A program made the translations under genes and the position numbers. From Escherichia coli (GTDB lineage: Bacteria; Pseudomonadota; Gammaproteobacteria; Enterobacterales; Enterobacteriaceae), in NCBI RefSeq assembly GCF_003334815.1, contig NZ_QOWO01000028.1: a DNA stretch of 53,280 nt. The stretch is one strand, 5' to 3'. A model generated the notes under the pieces. That model did no database searches. It worked only from the letters and a program-made list of their open reading frames with translations, and was not told the origin of the DNA. Below, in pieces: positions 1 through 53,280 of this stretch (position 1 is the first letter of the stretch; each line of letters begins with the position of its first letter).

Positions 1-77
1 CTTTTCAAAAGGGTATTTTGGCTTTGACATATTAGGGGCTATTCCATTTCATCGTCCAACAAAATGGGTGCAGTACA
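1..77 (-). mobile_element. Terminal segment of an IS3-family insertion sequence (IS150-like), truncated by the window edge
   Basis: Reverse complement of 37-77 reads TGTACTGCACCCATTTTGTTGGACGATGAAATGGAATAGCC, which matches my recollection of the IS150 left inverted repeat and has the IS3-family TG terminus. Position about 33 bp upstream of the hokA ATG agrees with the known K-12 hokA/IS150 arrangement. From memory, not verified. Confidence 0.5.
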
Positions 78-109
78 TACTCGTTGGAAATCAACACAGG
101 AGGCTGGGA

Positions 110-262
110 ATGCCGCAGAAATATAGATTACTTTCTTTAATAGTGATTTGTTTCACGCTTTTATTTTTCACCTGGATGATAAGAGATTCACTGTGTGAAT
201 TGCATATTAAACAGGAGAGTTATGAGCTGGCGGCGTTTTTAGCCTGCAAATTGAAAGAGTAA
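110..262 (+). CDS. hokA: Hok-family type I toxin HokA (50 aa)
   Basis: Translation MPQKYRLLSLIVICFTLLFFTWMIRDSLCELHIKQESYELAAFLACKLKE is a typical Hok/Gef peptide. AGGAGG Shine-Dalgarno lies just upstream of the ATG. The track ORF 68-262 is an in-frame GTG extension. Confidence 0.85.
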   Translation: MPQKYRLLSLIVICFTLLFFTWMIRDSLCELHIKQESYELAAFLACKLKE

Positions 263-392
263 GAGTCTTCGGCGGGAAATTATTCCCGCCTTACTTACGG
301 CGTTGCGCATTCTCATTGCACCCAAATTTATTCTTCACAAAAATAATAATAGATTTTATTACGCGATCGATTATTTATTTCCTGAAAACAAA

Positions 393-424
393 TAAAAAAA
401 TCCCCGCCAAATGGCAGGGATCTT
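393..424 (-). terminator. Intrinsic terminator downstream of cspA
   Basis: Minus-strand GC-rich hairpin (ATCCCTGCC...GGCGGGGAT) followed by a run of T, directly 3' of the cspA stop. Confidence 0.6.
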
Positions 425-448
425 AGATTCTGTGCTTTTAAGCAGAGA

Positions 449-661
449 TTACAGGCTGGTTACGTTACCAGCTGCCGGGCCTTTAGCGCCGCTTTCGATG
501 GTGAAGGACACTTTCTGACCTTCGTCCAGAGATTTGTAACCATCGTTCTGGATAGCAGAGAAGTGTACGAACACATCTTTAGAGCCATCGTCAGGAGTGA
601 TGAAGCCGAAGCCTTTGTCAGCGTTGAACCATTTTACGATACCAGTCATTTTACCGGACAT
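449..661 (-). CDS. cspA: Major cold shock protein CspA (70 aa)
   Basis: Translation [70 protein letters not shown] contains the RNP1/RNP2 cold-shock-domain motifs (KGFGFI, VFVHF). Confidence 0.97.
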
Positions 662-820
662 AGTGTATTACCTTTAATAATTAAGTGTGCCTTTCGGCGA
701 TATGGCGTGCTTTACAGATTTTGAAGCGTTAAAGGAATGTGCACTACGAGGGGTATCAACGATAACTCTTGAAGGGACTTGCCTTACTACACTGCTTTAA
801 TGGTCTGTACGTCAAACCGT
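662..820 (-). promoter_or_regulatory. cspA long 5' UTR (cold-responsive leader, about 159 nt)
   Basis: Established knowledge that cspA mRNA has a roughly 159-nt leader acting as an RNA thermosensor; coordinates are inferred from the ATG position, with an AT-rich promoter/UP region beyond it. TSS not determined from sequence. Confidence 0.5.
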
Positions 821-941
821 TGATGTGCATTAAGCCACGCATTGGCGGGTGATGCAACAATTATTTTTCATATTTATGATTAATCGGTTGGAAAACGGTC
901 CTGTCATCAGGACCGTAAACAGCAATAAAGTGGATAAAAGT

Positions 942-1232
942 CTATTCCATCAACTGCTTACTTAATGCCGGGTTGGCTTGAATCAAACGCATCAATTTTA
1001 GTTCGGCACTTGAAGGCTTCACGCGTCTGGATTCCCATTCCTTTACCATGGCGACTGATACGCCCAAAACCCGGGCGAAATCATCGATTTTTAATCCTGT
1101 CCCTTTTCGTAACTGCTCAATTTCGGTACAGGACGTTGTTCTGTGCGTCAGGGTAATTTTCTGCGTTTCATCTTTAAAAACAATCTGTTCCAGGCTGCTC
1201 AACAGCTCATGCATTGGATCTTTATATTCCAT
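942..1232 (-). CDS. yiaG: HTH (XRE-family) transcriptional regulator YiaG (96 aa)
   Basis: 96-aa ORF matching recalled E. coli YiaG; HTH-like segment near the C-terminal half. Confidence 0.88.
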   Translation of the reverse strand: MEYKDPMHELLSSLEQIVFKDETQKITLTHRTTSCTEIEQLRKGTGLKIDDFARVLGVSVAMVKEWESRRVKPSSAELKLMRLIQANPALSKQLME

Positions 1233-1665
1233 TGAAAACTCCTCAAATCACACTGCGGGATCGTGAATTGCATCGAAGCTCATTAAGAATAGTCGGGAAA
1301 AGCAGACACAGCGGGGTGAAGTCAGGGCATGCTCTGGCTATGATTCGATTCAGCCTGTCATTTAGCGTGACTTATAGCCACCTAACGATCTGATAAATGC
1401 CGATATATCTCTTACCACTCCTGTTTTGTAAAGATTTCGAAAATCTAACCTTCTGCGAAGGCGTAAATCTCTGGCTACAAAAAAGGCAACGGCACTATCA
1501 TTTTTTAACAATGAAACAACAAATTAACCTTGTTTCATTTTCTCCATGATTTTACCAGGAAGATTACGTAGAAAGGGTATCCTGCAAGCCTGTCCTGGAC
1601 TATCCTTGTCACGTCAGACACGCGTGTGTCGTTGTGCGCTTTTTTTGGGTGAAAGGAGTAAGAAA

Positions 1666-2376
1666 ATGGCGACAGGAAAGTCCTGCTCTCGCTGGTTTGC
1701 GCCTCTTGCGGCGTTATTAATGGTAGTTAGCCTGAGTGGGTGTTTTGATAAAGAAGGCGATCAGCGTAAAGCGTTTATCGACTTCCTGCAGAATACAGTG
1801 ATGCGTAGCGGTGAACGTCTACCAACCCTGACTGCCGATCAGAAAAAACAGTTTGGTCCTTTTGTCTCTGATTACGCGATTCTGTATGGTTATTCTCAGC
1901 AGGTGAATCAGGCGATGGATTCCGGTCTGCGCCCGGTTGTAGACAGCGTTAACGCAATTCGCGTACCGCAGGATTACGTTACGCAAAGCGGTCCGCTGCG
2001 TGAAATGAACGGTTCGCTGGGTGTGCTGGCGCAACAACTGCAAAATGCGAAGTTGCAGGCCGATGCTGCGCACTCTGCGCTAAAACAGAGCGATGATTTG
2101 AAACCGGTCTTTGATCAGGCATTCACCAAAGTGGTAACGACGCCAGCTGATGCATTGCAACCGTTGATTCCGGCGGCTCAAACTTTCACGCAACAACTGG
2201 TGATGGTTGGAGACTACATTGCTCAGCAAGGTACTCAGGTGAGCTTTGTCGCAAATGGCATCCAGTTCCCGACTTCACAGCAGGCAAGTGAATATAACAA
2301 ACTGATTGCGCCATTACCGGCACAGCATCAGGCGTTTAATCAGGCCTGGACTACAGCAGTTACTGCAACCCAATAA
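1666..2376 (+). CDS. yiaF: Lipoprotein YiaF (236 aa)
   Basis: Start trimmed to MATGKSCSRWFAPLAALLMVVSLSGCF, which has a signal peptide with lipobox LSGC, preceded by AAAGGAG. The track ORF begins 120 nt upstream with no comparable signal. Confidence 0.85.
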   Translation: MATGKSCSRWFAPLAALLMVVSLSGCFDKEGDQRKAFIDFLQNTVMRSGERLPTLTADQKKQFGPFVSDYAILYGYSQQVNQAMDSGLRPVVDSVNAIRVPQDYVTQSGPLREMNGSLGVLAQQLQNAKLQADAAHSALKQSDDLKPVFDQAFTKVVTTPADALQPLIPAAQTFTQQLVMVGDYIAQQGTQVSFVANGIQFPTSQQASEYNKLIAPLPAQHQAFNQAWTTAVTATQ

Positions 2377-2382
2377 AGAGTA

Positions 2383-2407
2383 AAAGCCCGAGCGATTATC
2401 GGGCTTT
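2383..2407. terminator. Hairpin between convergent yiaF and ghrB (likely bidirectional terminator)
   Basis: AAAGCCCG-AGCGATTAT-CGGGCTTT inverted repeat with T-rich flank on the minus strand. Confidence 0.5.
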
Positions 2408-2425
2408 ACTCTACGCAGTCGCGGC

Positions 2426-3400
2426 TTAGTCCGCGACGTGCGGATTCACACAGTTCTTCTCAACCTTTCCTTGTAACGCATCAATCAAATTATCCACGGC
2501 ACAGGCGGCCATGCCATAACGCGTCTCATGGGTGGCAGATCCAATATGCGGTACTGCGACGACGTTGGCCATTGAGAGCAACGGCGAATCTACGGACAGT
2601 GGCTCTTGTTCGAAGACATCCAGCCCGGCAGCGTGAATTTCGCCTTTCTGCAATGCTGCGATCAGTGCATTTTCGTCAACCACCGGGCCACGTCCGGCAT
2701 TAATGAAAATGGCGGAGGATTTCATTTTGGCGAATTGTTCTGCGCCAAACAGATGATGCGTCTCATCAGTTAACGGCAGGATCAGGCAAACGAAATCTGA
2801 CTCTTGTAACAGAGTATCCAAATCGCAGTAGCGGGCGTTGAAGCGTTCTTCTGCTTCTTTATGGTGGCGGCGCGCGTTATAGAGGATGGGCATGTTGAAG
2901 CCAAAGTGCGCACGTTGTGCCAGCGCCATGCCGATCCGTCCCATCCCGACAATGCCCAGTGTTTTATGGTGAACGTCAGTGCCGTACCAGTCCGGGCCTA
3001 TGCTCGCGGTCCATTCGCCTGCTTTTACCCGTTCTGCTACCTCCACAACCCGACGAGCGGTAGACAACACCAGCGCCATCAGCGTATCGGCGACGGTTTC
3101 TGTTAATACGGTTGGCGTGTGCATCAGCAGAATTTTTCGGGCGGTAAGCGCATCGACATCAAAATTGTCATAGCCGACGGAGATCGTTGATGTGGCACGC
3201 AGTTTCGGCATTTTTTCCAGCAATGCGGCATTTACATTCTCGTTTGAACCCAGTAAACCTTCAGCTTCGGCAAAAATTGCTGCATTTTGTTCGACGGTTT
3301 GTGGGCTGAGGTTTGCCACCTGGTGAACGGTGAAATGCTCTTGCAGGCGTTGCAGTAAATCATCAGGTAAGGCTTTGTAGAGGATAACGGACGGCTTCAT
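2426..3400 (-). CDS. ghrB: Glyoxylate/hydroxypyruvate reductase B (2-ketoaldonate reductase), 324 aa
   Basis: D-2-hydroxyacid dehydrogenase family with NAD-binding GxGxxG (GIVGMGRIG); start trimmed to [12 protein letters not shown]. Confidence 0.9.
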
Positions 3401-3503
3401 GCTTCTCTCCATTCACTGATAAGGCGATCACCTTAGCCTGAAATATGATGAAGGAAAACTGAAGAATGCCAGGTGATTTCTGCATCACCTGGCATGAAAG
3501 GGA

Positions 3504-4163
3504 TTACAGCGGGCTTAAGGTAATTTCTACACGGCGGTTTTGCGCCTTACCTTCTGCGGTGCTGTTGCTGGCGATTGGGTTAGCCGGGCCAAGGCCCTGA
3601 GTACGGATGCGGCTGGCGTCCACGCCCTGGGTGATCAACGCGCTGGCAACGGAATCCGCACGTTGCTGGGAGAGACGCATGTTCAGGTCGTGACCACCCG
3701 TGCTGTCGGTATAACCAATCACGTTAACCGCCGTTTTCGGATACTCTTTCAGTACCATTGCCACGCCGGTCAGGGTGTTAGCGCCCGCCGGTTTCAGGGT
3801 CGCGCTGCTGCTGTCGAAGGTCACATTGTTCGGCATATTGAGGATAATGTTATCCCCGCTGCGGGTTACGCTAACACCAGTGCCGCGCATTTTGTCGCGC
3901 AGCTTCGCTTCCTGCACATCCATGTAATAACCAACGCCGCCGCCCAGAGCTGCGCCTGCTGCTGCGCCAATCAGCGCGCCTTTACCGCGATCTTTCTTCG
4001 AAGAAGAGAGCGCACCAATACCCGCGCCCACGAGAGAGCCCAGACCTGCGCCGATAGCAGATTTACCTGCTTCGCGTTCGCCGGTGTAAGGGTTAGTTGT
4101 GCAGCCAGATACCGCCAGAGCGCCACTCACTACGGCGGCAATAAGATAAACACGTTTCTTCAT
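3504..4163 (-). CDS. yiaD: OmpA-domain lipoprotein YiaD (219 aa)
   Basis: Signal peptide with lipobox (AVSGC), Gly/Ala-rich linker and C-terminal OmpA-like peptidoglycan-binding domain. Confidence 0.9.
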   Translation of the reverse strand: MKKRVYLIAAVVSGALAVSGCTTNPYTGEREAGKSAIGAGLGSLVGAGIGALSSSKKDRGKGALIGAAAGAALGGGVGYYMDVQEAKLRDKMRGTGVSVTRSGDNIILNMPNNVTFDSSSATLKPAGANTLTGVAMVLKEYPKTAVNVIGYTDSTGGHDLNMRLSQQRADSVASALITQGVDASRIRTQGLGPANPIASNSTAEGKAQNRRVEITLSPL

Positions 4164-4315
4164 TGTTAATCCTTAATAACCTTTTTATTCTTTGCCACGG
4201 GTTCCGTGGCGGGAGATTATGCCGCGTGAACATGAAGATTATTCCTGGGAATACTCGGAAATTTGTAAGTAATATTTAACTGCTCAATACATCTAACCTT
4301 TCAGGAGTCTTCGGT

Positions 4316-6649
4316 TTGGCCAACTCATCCTCACGATATTCCGTTCTGACTGCCGCCCATTGGGGGCCCATGCTGGTTGAAACCGACGGCGAAACCGTGT
4401 TTAGCTCGCGTGGCGCGTTAGCCACAGGAATGGAAAACTCCTTGCAGAGCGCGGTTCGCGACCAGGTTCACAGCAATACGCGGGTACGATTTCCAATGGT
4501 GCGAAAAGGCTTTCTTGCGTCACCGGAAAACCCGCAAGGCATTCGTGGGCAGGATGAATTTGTTCGCGTGAGTTGGGATGAGGCGCTGGATCTTATTCAC
4601 CAACAACATAAACGCATTCGTGAGGCTTATGGTCCGGCATCGATTTTTGCTGGTTCCTACGGCTGGCGTTCAAACGGCGTGCTGCATAAGGCCTCGACAT
4701 TATTACAACGCTATATGGCGCTGGCAGGCGGTTATACCGGGCATCTGGGGGATTATTCGACCGGCGCGGCACAGGCGATCATGCCGTATGTCGTGGGTGG
4801 TAGTGAAGTTTATCAACAGCAGACCAGTTGGCCGCTGGTGCTGGAACATAGCGATGTCGTGGTGCTGTGGAGTGCTAACCCACTCAATACGCTGAAAATT
4901 GCGTGGAATGCATCCGATGAGCAGGGGCTTTCTTACTTTTCTGCACTGCGTGACAGCGGGAAAAAGCTGATCTGCATTGATCCAATGCGATCGGAAACCG
5001 TCGATTTCTTTGGCGATAAAATGGAGTGGGTGGCACCGCACATGGGCACCGATGTTGCGCTGATGCTGGGGATCGCCCATACGCTGGTGGAAAATGGTTG
5101 GCACGACGAAGCGTTTCTGGCGCGTTGCACCACAGGTTATGCCGTCTTCGCCTCTTATTTGCTGGGCGAGAGTGACGGAATAGCGAAAACCGCCGAATGG
5201 GCAGCAGAGATTTGTGGTGTTGGCGCAGCGAAAATCCGCGAGCTGGCGGCTATTTTCCACCAAAATACCACCATGCTGATGGCAGGCTGGGGAATGCAGC
5301 GCCAACAGTTTGGTGAGCAAAAACACTGGATGATCGTCACGCTGGCAGCAATGTTGGGGCAAATCGGCACACCCGGCGGCGGTTTTGGTCTTTCTTACCA
5401 TTTTGCCAATGGTGGTAACCCCACGCGGCGTTCTGCGGTGCTCTCTTCCATGCAGGGCAGCTTGCCGGGTGGCTGCGATGCGGTGGATAAAATCCCTGTT
5501 GCCCGCATTGTTGAAGCACTGGAAAACCCTGGTGGCGCATATCAACACAACGGTATGAACCGACATTTCCCGGATATTCGTTTTATCTGGTGGGCGGGCG
5601 GTGCCAACTTTACTCATCATCAGGATACCAATCGCCTGATCCGTGCCTGGCAAAAACCGGAGCTGGTGGTGATCTCTGAATGCTTCTGGACGGCGGCGGC
5701 AAAACACGCGGATATCGTTCTGCCTGCGACTACCTCTTTTGAGCGTAATGATCTCACCATGACCGGTGATTACAGTAATCAGCATCTGGTGCCGATGAAG
5801 CAAGTGGTGCCGCCACGCTATGAAGCGCGTAATGATTTTGATGTTTTTGCCGAGTTAAGTGAACGCTGGGAGAAGGGCGGTTATGCACGTTTTACGGAAG
5901 GAAAAAGTGAGCTGCAATGGCTGGAAACGTTTTATAACGTTGCCCGACAGCGCGGGGCAAGCCAGCAGGTTGAATTGCCGCCATTTGCTGAGTTCTGGCA
6001 AGCCAACCAGTTAATTGAGATGCCGGAAAACCCGGACAGCGAGCGGTTTATTCGCTTCGCTGATTTTTGCCGCGATCCGCTGGCGCATCCGTTAAAAACC
6101 GCCAGCGGCAAGATTGAAATCTTCTCACAGCGTATTGCCGATTACGGTTACCCGGATTGCCCTGGGCATCCAATGTGGCTGGAGCCGGACGAATGGCAGG
6201 GCAATGCCGAACCAGAACAGTTGCAGGTACTTTCTGCCCATCCGGCGCACCGCCTGCACAGCCAGCTGAATTACAGTTCTCTGCGCGAATTGTACGCGGT
6301 GGCAAATCGTGAGCCTGTCACCATTCATCCTGACGATGCCCAGGAGCGCGGCATACAAGATGGCGATACTGTTCGGTTGTGGAACGCACGCGGGCAAATT
6401 CTTGCCGGAGCGGTCATTAGCGAGGGAATTAAACCTGGCGTGATTTGCATTCACGAAGGGGCATGGCCGGATCTGGATTTAACCGCTGACGGTATTTGTA
6501 AAAACGGCGCAGTGAACGTGCTGACCAAAGATCTCCCCAGCTCGCGGCTGGGGAATGGCTGTGCGGGTAATACGGCGCTGGCATGGCTGGAAAAATACAA
6601 CGGTCCGGAACTGACACTTACAGCGTTTGAACCACCGGCCAGCTCATAA
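4316..6649 (+). CDS. bisC: Biotin sulfoxide reductase (molybdopterin oxidoreductase), 777 aa
   Basis: 777-aa DMSO-reductase-family molybdoenzyme; size and neighbourhood match bisC. Confidence 0.9.
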
Positions 6650-12017: not shown

Positions 12018-12094
<77 letters not shown>

Positions 12095-12184: not shown

Positions 12185-12270
12185 GTAGGCCTGATAAGAC
12201 GCGTCAGCGTCGCATCAGGCAAATGTGCCGGCCATTGTCGGATGCGGCGCGACCGCCTTATTCGACCTAC
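12185..12270. repeat. REP/BIME palindromic units
   Basis: GTAGGCCTGATAAGACGCGTCAGCGTCGCATCAGGC and a second degenerate GCCGGATGCGGCG...CCTAC unit, typical of E. coli REP elements. Confidence 0.55.
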
Positions 12271-14480: not shown

Positions 14481-14580
14481 TGCCTGATGCGCTCCGCTTA
14501 TCAGGCCTACGAAAATTCTGCAATGTATTGAATTTGCACGATTTTGTAGGCCGGATAAGGCGTTAACGCCGCATCCGGCA
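14481..14580. repeat. REP/BIME cluster in the dppA-dppB intergenic region
   Basis: TGCCTGATGCGCTCCGCTTATCAGGCCTAC and GTAGGCCGGATAAGGCGTTAACGCCGCATCCGGCA in inverted orientation. Confidence 0.7.
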
Positions 14581-20337: not shown

Positions 20338-20405
20338 GAGAGAAAACCCCCGCACGTTGCAGGTATGCACCTGACAACACCACGGGGGCTAATCTTGACT
20401 CTAGA
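20338..20405 (-). ncRNA. rdlD: Antisense sRNA RdlD (antitoxin of the ldrD type I toxin-antitoxin pair); coordinates approximate
   Basis: Established ldr/rdl arrangement places an roughly 60-nt antisense RNA upstream of and opposite to ldr. The minus strand here carries a CCCCCG...CGGGGG hairpin followed by a T-tract ending near 20338. Confidence 0.4.
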
Positions 20406-20454
20406 CCACTCAAGAATAGCCGCGAAACGTTGTCATTACAACACAGGCGGCTAT

Positions 20455-24556: not shown

Positions 24557-25309
24557 ATGGCCGTACTGGGATTGCAGGGGGTGCGGGGAGGCGTGGGGAC
24601 AACAACCATCACCGCCGCATTAGCCTGGTCATTACAAATGTTGGGAGAAAATGTCCTGGTGGTCGATGCCTGCCCGGACAACTTGTTGCGCCTGTCATTT
24701 AATGTTGATTTTACCCACCGTCAGGGCTGGGCCAGAGCGATGCTGGATGGCCAGGACTGGCGTGACGCTGGGTTGCGCTACACCTCGCAGCTCGATTTGC
24801 TGCCTTTTGGTCAGTTATCCATTGAAGAACAAGAAAATCCACAGCACTGGCAAACCCGGCTGAGCGATATTTGCTCCGGCTTACAGCAACTAAAAGCCAG
24901 CGGGCGTTACCAGTGGATTTTAATCGACTTACCGCGTGATGCCTCGCAGATAACCCACCAGCTGCTGAGTTTGTGCGATCACTCGCTGGCAATCGTCAAT
25001 GTGGATGCCAACTGCCATATCCGACTGCATCAGCAAGCGCTGCCGGATGGCGCACATATTTTGATTAATGACTTCCGTATTGGCAGTCAGGTTCAGGACG
25101 ATATTTACCAGCTTTGGTTGCAAAGCCAGCGCCGATTACTGCCGATGCTCATTCATCGTGATGAAGCGATGGCTGAATGCCTGGCGGCTAAGCAACCAGT
25201 AGGTGAATATCGCAGTGATGCGCTGGCGGCTGAAGAGATACTGACGCTGGCGAACTGGTGCCTGTTGAACTACTCCGGGCTGAAAACGCCAGTCGGGAGT
25301 GCATCATGA
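24557..25309 (+). CDS. bcsQ: ParA/MinD-like ATPase BcsQ (250 aa), uninterrupted
   Basis: Deviant Walker A GVRGGVGTTTI; codon 6 is TTG (Leu), so the reading frame is intact; 4-bp overlap with bcsA. Confidence 0.93.
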   Translation: MAVLGLQGVRGGVGTTTITAALAWSLQMLGENVLVVDACPDNLLRLSFNVDFTHRQGWARAMLDGQDWRDAGLRYTSQLDLLPFGQLSIEEQENPQHWQTRLSDICSGLQQLKASGRYQWILIDLPRDASQITHQLLSLCDHSLAIVNVDANCHIRLHQQALPDGAHILINDFRIGSQVQDDIYQLWLQSQRRLLPMLIHRDEAMAECLAAKQPVGEYRSDALAAEEILTLANWCLLNYSGLKTPVGSAS

Positions 25310-51353: not shown

Positions 51354-52751
51354 ATGAAAATGGTCTCACGTATTACCGCGATCGGCCTGGCTGGCGTCGC
51401 GATTTGCTATTTAGGGTTATCTGGTTATGTGTGGTACCACGATAATAAACGCAGTAAACAGGCCGATGTTCAGGCATCTGCTGTCAGTGAAAATAATAAG
51501 GTTTTAGGCTTTCTCCGCGAAAAAGGATGCGACTATTGCCACACGCCTTCGGCAGAATTACCCGCCTATTATTATATTCCTGGCGCGAAACAGTTGATGG
51601 ATTACGACATTAAGCTTGGATATAAATCTTTTAACCTTGAGGCCGTGCGTGCGGCACTGCTGGCTGATAAACCCGTTTCGCAAAGCGATTTGAATAAGAT
51701 TGAATGGGTGATGCAGTATGAAACTATGCCACCAACGCGTTATACCGCGCTACACTGGGCGGGTAAGGTGAGTGATGAAGAGCGGGCGGAAATACTGGCC
51801 TGGATTGCAAAACAGCGCGCGGAATATTACGCCAGCAATGATACTGCTCCGGAACATCGCAATGAACCGGTGCAGCCCATCCCGCAAAAACTGCCTACCG
51901 ATGCGCAAAAAGTGGCGTTGGGTTTTGCGCTGTATCACGATCCCCGTTTATCGGCTGATAGCACCATTTCATGCGCTCATTGCCATGCGTTGAATGCGGG
52001 GGGCGTCGATGGCAGAAAAACATCGATTGGTGTTGGTGGCGCAGTTGGGCCGATTAACGCGCCGACGGTATTTAACTCAGTATTTAACGTTGAGCAGTTC
52101 TGGGATGGTCGTGCGGCAACATTGCAGGATCAGGCTGGTGGACCGCCGTTGAACCCGATTGAAATGGCGTCGAAATCCTGGGACGAAATTATTGCTAAGC
52201 TGGAAAAAGATCCGCAGCTTAAAACGCAGTTCCTCGAAGTCTATCCGCAAGGTTTCAGTGGCGAAAATATTACTGATGCCATTGCTGAATTTGAGAAAAC
52301 ATTAATTACGCCGGATTCCCCATTTGATAAATGGTTGCGCGGAGATGAAAATGCGCTGACGGCGCAACAGAAAAAAGGCTATCAATTATTTAAAGATAAT
52401 AAATGTGCAACTTGTCATGGTGGTATTATTCTCGGCGGACGTTCCTTTGAACCGTTGGGGCTGAAAAAAGACTTTAACTTTGGGGAAATTACGGCGGCGG
52501 ATATTGGTCGTATGAATGTGACTAAAGAAGAGCGTGATAAATTGCGTCAGAAAGTACCCGGTTTACGTAACGTTGCTTTAACGGCACCGTACTTCCATCG
52601 CGGTGACGTGCCGACGCTGGACGGGGCGGTGAAACTGATGCTGCGCTATCAGGTAGGCAAAGAGCTGCCGCAGGAGGATGTGGATGATATCGTAGCTTTC
52701 CTGCACAGTCTGAACGGGGTGTACACGCCGTATATGCAGGATAAACAATAA
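51354..52751 (+). CDS. yhjA: Cytochrome c peroxidase YhjA (Ccp, 465 aa)
   Basis: Three CxxCH haem-binding motifs (CDYCH, CAHCH, CATCH) and an N-terminal TM anchor. Confidence 0.95.
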   Translation: MKMVSRITAIGLAGVAICYLGLSGYVWYHDNKRSKQADVQASAVSENNKVLGFLREKGCDYCHTPSAELPAYYYIPGAKQLMDYDIKLGYKSFNLEAVRAALLADKPVSQSDLNKIEWVMQYETMPPTRYTALHWAGKVSDEERAEILAWIAKQRAEYYASNDTAPEHRNEPVQPIPQKLPTDAQKVALGFALYHDPRLSADSTISCAHCHALNAGGVDGRKTSIGVGGAVGPINAPTVFNSVFNVEQFWDGRAATLQDQAGGPPLNPIEMASKSWDEIIAKLEKDPQLKTQFLEVYPQGFSGENITDAIAEFEKTLITPDSPFDKWLRGDENALTAQQKKGYQLFKDNKCATCHGGIILGGRSFEPLGLKKDFNFGEITAADIGRMNVTKEERDKLRQKVPGLRNVALTAPYFHRGDVPTLDGAVKLMLRYQVGKELPQEDVDDIVAFLHSLNGVYTPYMQDKQ

Positions 52752-52760
52752 TTAATTTGA

Positions 52761-52792
52761 TCGCCCGAACAGCAATGTTTGGGCGATTTTTA
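52761..52792 (+). terminator. Intrinsic terminator after yhjA
   Basis: TCGCCCGAACA...TGTTTGGGCGA hairpin followed by TTTTTA. Confidence 0.6.
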
Positions 52793-52862
52793 TTACGATA
52801 ATAAAGTCTGTTTTTAATATTATCATGTTAAATGTTTATATTATAAAAAGTCGTTTTTCTGC

Positions 52863-52882
52863 TTAGGATTTTGTTATTTAAA
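52863..52882 (+). promoter_or_regulatory. GAD box (GadE/RcsB binding site) of the gadA promoter
   Basis: Exact 20-bp TTAGGATTTTGTTATTTAAA about 80 bp upstream of the gadA ATG; matches the recalled gad box consensus. Confidence 0.6.
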
Positions 52883-52962
52883 TTAAGCCTGTAATGCCTT
52901 GCTTCCATTGCGGATAAATCCTACTTTTTTATTGCCTTCAAATAAATTTAAGGAGTTCGAAA

Positions 52963-53280
52963 TGGACCAGAAGCTGTTAACGGATTTCCGCTCAGAACTA
53001 CTCGATTCACGTTTTGGCGCAAAGGCCATTTCTACTATCGCGGAGTCAAAACGATTTCCGCTGCACGAAATGCGCGATGATGTCGCATTTCAGATTATCA
53101 ATGATGAATTATATCTTGATGGCAACGCTCGTCAGAACCTGGCCACTTTCTGCCAGACCTGGGACGACGAAAACGTCCATAAATTGATGGATTTGTCGAT
53201 CAATAAAAACTGGATCGACAAAGAAGAATATCCGCAATCCGCAGCCATCGACCTGCGTTGCGTAAATATGGTTGCCGATC
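52963..53280 (+). CDS. gadA: Glutamate decarboxylase GadA, 5' portion (continues past window end)
   Basis: N-terminus [69 protein letters not shown]; assigned to gadA rather than gadB because of the yhjA neighbour. Confidence 0.9.

Follow-up and report, generated by a model that had tools for sequence, protein, structure and literature searches.

We suggest that the 20 bp at positions 52863-52882 (+ strand) of the DNA analysed here, TTAGGATTTTGTTATTTAAA, are the GAD box upstream of gadA, an asymmetric operator at which an RcsB/GadE heterodimer would bind and activate gadA; we put the probability of this reading at about 95%. The GAD box in this place is an ordinary, well-characterised and already known element, and that of K-12 gadA was reportedly defined by Castanié-Cornet and Foster in 2001, Ma et al. 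in 2003 and Castanié-Cornet et al. in 2010. The whole stretch of DNA, referred to hereafter as the window, is 53,280 nt long. The features established on the window itself are the sequence identity of the box, its position, its conservation in the paralogous promoter and its conservation in the population.

The box is present with 0 mismatches, spans -72 to -53 relative to the gadA transcription start (centre -62.5), and is the sole match to TTAGGATTTTGTTATTTAAA in the window when both strands are searched and up to three mismatches are allowed. The published asymmetric GadE site, quoted as TTAGGAttTTgTTATTTAAa by Seo et al. (2015, PMC4918353), is the same as the window 20-mer letter for letter. 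An earlier note on this DNA, made from the letters alone, had claimed an unaltered GAD box here and had pointed to a published box with a different sequence as the observation that would speak against it; the published site is identical, and the claim stands, the box being exact, unique in the window and equal to the published site.

The match might instead be a chance A+T-rich 20-mer, functionless in its present place; in a search of one genome per species (~100,000 species, 298 Gb) three exact copies did occur in unrelated metagenome bins. These bins (one Lentisphaeria, two Bacteroidales) have no flanking similarity and no gad gene, and were set aside as chance matches. For the window, however, the expectation for one given 20-mer in uniform random sequence is ~1e-7 over 2 x 53,261 positions, and 0 of 100 dinucleotide-preserving shuffles of the window contained a match with three mismatches allowed. 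Together with the published distance from the gadA start and the canonical genomic context, this effectively excludes a chance match as the explanation.

Layout of the gadA promoter

Castanié-Cornet et al. (2010, PMC2887963) used the primers gadAup (-101) and gadAdown (+24), whose positions in the window, 52834 and 52958, delimit a fragment of 125 bp, as expected. Both primer positions agree in placing the gadA transcription start (+1) at 52935 (+ strand), 27 nt before the ATG. On this scale, the segment from -76 to -50 of the K-12 gadA promoter, which RcsB and GadE together protect from DNase I (PMC2887963), is equivalent to 52859-52885 (+ strand) of the window; the published footprint was made on K-12 DNA, and in this region the window does not differ from the genome of a K-12-lineage (O16:H48) strain. 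The GAD box was described as "centered 63 bp upstream" and "16 bp upstream of the -35 element" (PMC2887963), and the box in the window agrees on both counts, with its centre at -62.5 and 16 bp between it and the hexamer TTGCTT.

This hexamer, at 52899-52904 (+ strand; -36 to -31), is taken as the -35 element according to the spacing given in PMC2887963, and CTTGC of the -35 region is invariant in 10 Escherichia gadA/gadB promoters. A putative -10 element, TACTTT, is located at 52922-52927 (+ strand; -13 to -8), as suggested by the 17-bp spacer from the -35 element and by the description in PMC2887963. The box through which RcsB acts as a repressor, GGATAAATCCTACT, would occupy 52912-52925 (+ strand; about -24 to -11, limits approximate), and in the alignment the G-to-C difference between the gadA and gadB versions of this box falls at 52912. 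The K-12 gadA promoter has the same 20-mer at the same position (-72 to -53), the same 16 bp between box and -35 element, and the same RcsB box, -10 element and flanking genes as the window, and no promoter differences were found. A simple sigma-70 scan was uninformative, calling A+T-rich chance sites upstream and missing the gadA promoter, whose two hexamers are too weak for it, as would be expected where transcription depends on an activator.

Further upstream, a candidate GadX/GadW box, AAGTCTGTTTTTAATATTAT, lies at 52804-52823 (+ strand; -131 to -112). It has two mismatches to the published GadX/GadW motif, AKGKCTGWTWTTWWYMYVAK (PMC4918353), and is the only match to that motif in the window at two mismatches or fewer, with 0.14 matches expected by chance and at least one match found in 13 of 100 shuffles. 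A GadXW box is drawn in the gadA regulatory region in Fig. 7 of PMC2887963. A GadX/GadW box at this location, upstream of the GAD box, is plausible, weak as the motif match is when taken alone.

Genomic setting of the box

The 465-aa ORF at 51354-52751 (+ strand) is ccp (yhjA), coding for cytochrome c peroxidase and annotated as ccp in identical RefSeq loci; this upstream neighbour identifies the locus as gadA and not gadB. On the other side, the ATG at 52962 opens a frame with a GadA-type N-terminus (MDQKLL) that runs past the window end. Its translation and the annotation of identical loci assign 52962-53280 (+ strand) to the gadA CDS, cut by the end of the window. The earlier note was thus correct in placing gadA at the window edge, with the qualification that the first 106 codons only fall inside and 360 of 466 lie beyond.

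The spacer between ccp and gadA is 210 bp long, contains the GAD box and is 100% identical to that of the K-12-lineage (O16:H48) genome. Of 5,426 complete E. coli genomes, 5,413 contain a match to a 211-bp query made up of the spacer and the last base of the ccp stop codon. At 52759-52788 (+ strand), a consensus scan, the one method applied here, picked out an intrinsic-terminator-like hairpin with a T run (13-pair stem with 6 GC pairs, followed by TTTTATTACGA), which would separate ccp transcription from the gadA promoter.

In genomes identical at this locus the gene order is ccp-gadA-gadX-gadW-mdtF-mdtE-gadE-hdeD-hdeAB, and hence the window ends where the acid fitness island begins. One such genome, FORC 064, is 100% identical to the window over its last 25 kb; there, gadX, gadW, mdtFE and gadE follow gadA as usual, gadE being located ~7.3 kb past the end of gadA and ~8.4 kb past the position corresponding to the window end.

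The window is colinear with MG1655, with exact coordinates, from gadA back to bcsQ. The latter is an intact 250-aa ORF here (24557-25309, + strand) and an annotated pseudogene in MG1655, which indicates that the surrounding chromosome is non-K-12; the source strain is probably cellulose-proficient, judging by this ORF. When the 25 kb from 28281 to 53280 were used as a megablast query, a median of 31 matching places per genome was returned, pointing to short dispersed repeats in this part of the window, presumably elements of the REP/BIME type. Five Rfam matches at gathering level are ordinary features of this E. coli region: the cspA thermoregulator (394-821, - strand), a tRNA (12018-12091, + strand; tRNA-Pro proK by synteny with MG1655), naRNA4/CssrE (12188-12267, - strand), ES036/CssrF (14503-14545, - strand) and the rdlD antitoxin RNA, which adjoins ldrD (20341-20406, - strand).

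Conservation in gadB, among E. coli genomes and in other Escherichia

The gadB promoter of MG1655 carries the same 20-mer, identical to the window box at 20/20 positions. In an alignment of the window with MG1655, the bases just upstream of the box differ between gadA and gadB, the 16-bp spacer between the box and TTGCTT differs at most positions while being equal in length, and identity returns at the -35 element and the block formed by the RcsB box and the -10 element. The comparison of gadA and gadB promoters, which the earlier note had proposed as a check, therefore shows the box as an island of complete identity between diverged flanks. The box of gadBC also has the same distances to TTGCTT and to the start codon as that of gadA. 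Apart from the upstream flank and the spacer, gadB differs from gadA in that its RcsB box begins with C instead of G, its upstream neighbour is pqqL and not ccp, and its product starts with MDKKQV (MDKKQVTDLR) as opposed to MDQKLL. The arrangement pqqL-gadB-gadC with an exact GAD box is also seen at 1-5020 of NZ_JBYVFY010000003.1, a 504-kb "plasmid" named pckj3_1_3, which is most likely a mislabelled chromosomal fragment or a chromid; GAD box places on "plasmid" records such as this one number six.

Conservation within the species was assessed by megablast of four adjacent 30-mers against 5,426 complete E. coli genomes, with 28 exact bases of 30 needed for a match. The upstream flank (52830-52859) was exact in 4,306 genomes (79.4%), the GAD box with 4-5 nt on either side (52858-52887) in 5,285 (97.4%), the spacer and -35 element (52886-52915) in 4,690 (86.4%), and the segment with the RcsB box, the -10 element and +1 (52910-52939) in 5,377 (99.1%), with 97.4% being a minimum for the box, as the ~130 genomes without the exact 28-mer may vary in the 4-nt flanks. 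Constraint is clearly stronger on the GAD box and on the core promoter than on the segments between and before them. A word-11 search returned 10,816 box places, with a median of two per genome across the 5,426 genomes, matching the gadA and gadB copies.

Part of the 2.6% loss of the box segment results from flank SNPs beside an intact box. In BL21 (BL21-RIPL, NZ_CP083273.1; locus 401-830), the box is intact and an A-to-G change is located 3 nt downstream of it, at the equivalent of window position 52885; a SNP at this distance, as in BL21, is one recurrent cause of a non-exact segment. The gadA gene of BL21-RIPL is annotated as an incomplete pseudogene without its C-terminus, and a GAD box can thus precede a broken gene. 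One genuine exception is KR2009 (NZ_CP040664.1, locus 1502-1647): its ccp-gadA spacer has lost 64 bp between short ATAAA repeats, equivalent to about 52848-52911 of the window, and with them the whole GAD box and the -35 element. There, gadA itself is full-length and still has the RcsB box and the -10 element in front of it; either the assembly is wrong at this point or KR2009 has a gadA promoter that is naturally blind to GadE.

Shared ancestry could in principle account for the identity of the two boxes. The coding regions and core promoters of gadA and gadB are very similar, conversion tracts are plausible, and the 20/20 match might be a leftover of duplication or the product of gene conversion without any selection on a binding site. 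The identity, however, takes the form of an island, with one of the 16 spacer columns invariant, unlike a continuous tract extending from the coding region; 97.4% of genomes have an exact box segment, compared with 79% and 86% for the segments on either side; and a single-base change in the box abolishes activation (PMC2887963). We consider such an origin of the identity hardly credible, and retain the reading of the 20-mer as an operator.

Beyond E. coli, the exact 20-mer was restricted to Escherichia in the search of ~100,000 species, save for the three chance matches in metagenome bins. It was found in E. albertii, E. whittamii, Escherichia sp. E1V33 and two divergent lineages labelled E. 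coli, and E. fergusonii gave no exact match in this search of species-representative genomes. In the Escherichia matches, the box is at a constant distance from the -35 element, with diverged flanks, and lies 79 bp before a gadA- or gadB-type start codon, or 80 bp where an extra T is present in the T run after the -10 element. These loci were gathered by an exact match to the box, and the invariance of the box columns among them is partly by construction; the cross-species alignment was set aside as a phylogenetic footprint for being partly circular, and the comparison of box and flanks in the population was used instead. At the level of sequence, the matches show the exact box persisting in lineages whose neighbouring bases have drifted. 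Two exact boxes are present in E. coli, in the two lineages labelled E. coli and in Escherichia sp. E1V33, as compared to one each, of the gadA type, in E. albertii and E. whittamii; in the last two species either gadB is absent or its box differs.

Binding by RcsB and GadE, and control of gadA

Binding, heterodimer formation, activation and repression are taken here from the literature. The identity of the window spacer to that of the K-12-lineage genome means that the footprint, EMSA, transcription and M1 mutant data obtained with K-12 concern the same sequence. On this DNA, the RcsB/GadE heterodimer binds with an apparent Kd of about 10 nM, in vitro transcription of gadA rises up to 7-fold with RcsB and GadE together, and neither the Rcs phosphorelay nor RcsA is needed for activation (PMC2887963). 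When a G in the left half of the box is changed to C (M1 mutation), both binding and GadE-dependent activation in vivo are abolished (PMC2887963). The left half, TTAGGA, is unaltered in the window and the critical G is thus present; the M1 base is one of the two Gs of TTAGGA. Exchanging TT for CC in the right half (M2 mutation) weakens binding only slightly (PMC2887963), and RcsB/GadE binding in vitro can therefore do without some of the 20 bases.

An earlier model (Ma et al. 2003) had a GadE homodimer binding the box alone, with RcsB taking no direct part. It can draw on earlier reports of MBP-GadE binding to the GAD box, cited in PMC2887963, and on the tendency of GadE towards homodimers in solution (PMC2887963). 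Against it, GadE prepared from a strain without rcs genes produces neither a shift nor a footprint on the gadA fragment, by which the model is largely refuted; further to that, RcsB co-purifies with GadE from wild-type cells, EMSAs with mixed tags place both proteins in the complex, and both are needed for activation in vitro (PMC2887963). The sequence of the box points in the same direction. TAGGA, at 52864-52868 within the left half, is the inverse of TCCTA at 52919-52923, the right end of the RcsB box 51 bp downstream, which is consistent with recognition of this half of the GAD box by RcsB, and the authors of PMC2887963 remarked on its resemblance to an RcsB half-site. GadE acting by itself is in our view very unlikely, and the RcsB/GadE heterodimer is preferred as the ligand of the box.

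According to the mechanism that we favour, a heterodimer of the LuxR-type protein GadE and the response regulator RcsB would occupy the box centred at -62.5. With 16 bp between this box and a weak -35 element, the pair would activate gadA (and gadX), and glutamate-dependent acid resistance would be switched on as a consequence. The position of the box is that of a classical class I activator, from which we infer a possible contact with the C-terminal domain of the RNA polymerase alpha subunit.

The earlier note had gone on to read the unaltered box as a sign of intact GadE/RcsB-dependent control of gadA. With regard to the cis elements this is borne out, as the GAD box, the spacing, the -35 element, the RcsB box, the -10 element, the Shine-Dalgarno sequence and the gadA start are all visibly intact. 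Intact control as such goes further than the window allows, because it includes neither gadE nor rcsB and lacks 360 of the 466 codons of gadA; an intact site is necessary for GadE/RcsB control, yet insufficient. The source strain would be expected to have working gadE and rcsB genes, with the gene order of FORC 064 providing circumstantial support.

Composite operators of this kind are also known for other pairs. In the RcsAB box and other sites of RcsB with a partner, RcsB is likewise combined with a second helix-turn-helix protein of the LuxR/FixJ type, and further sites for RcsB and an auxiliary regulator are those of BglJ-RcsB and MatA-RcsB. The GAD box is distinguished from the RcsAB box by having GadE as the partner and by a right half unrelated to the RcsB half-site. 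This right half, GTTATTTAAA, is a peculiarity of gadA and gadB. The genome-wide GadE motif from ChIP-exo, TTARGAWWWWAAATA (Seo et al. 2015, PMC4918353), has the left half TTAGGA followed by an A/T-rich stretch in common with the gadA box and is without GTTATTTAAA. A scan of the window with TTARGAWWWWAAATA at two mismatches or fewer did not recover the gadA GAD box, indicating that the right half belongs to gadA/gadB specifically and is no general GadE signature; the motif was rejected as a detector, having returned four weak matches (1.6 expected) and missed the real box.

The right half is letter-perfect in the gadA and gadB promoters of E. coli and of other Escherichia, in a set that was partly gathered by exact match. 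Its strictness, the small effect of M2 on binding and its absence from TTARGAWWWWAAATA led us to propose that it may be held by a second, as yet undescribed constraint, an idea that we regard as improbable. If true, this constraint could be exerted by another protein (through GadX/GadW overlap, H-NS nucleation or a further partner of GadE), or, alternatively, activation as distinct from binding could require a particular DNA shape.

The window thus carries the standard, intact layout of the gadA acid-resistance promoter, like ~97% or more of sequenced E. coli. It can serve as an annotation anchor that gives window coordinates for +1 (52935), for the operator of RcsB/GadE, for the box at which RcsB represses and for the core promoter, and the GAD box and gadA show that the acid fitness island starts at the right edge of the window.
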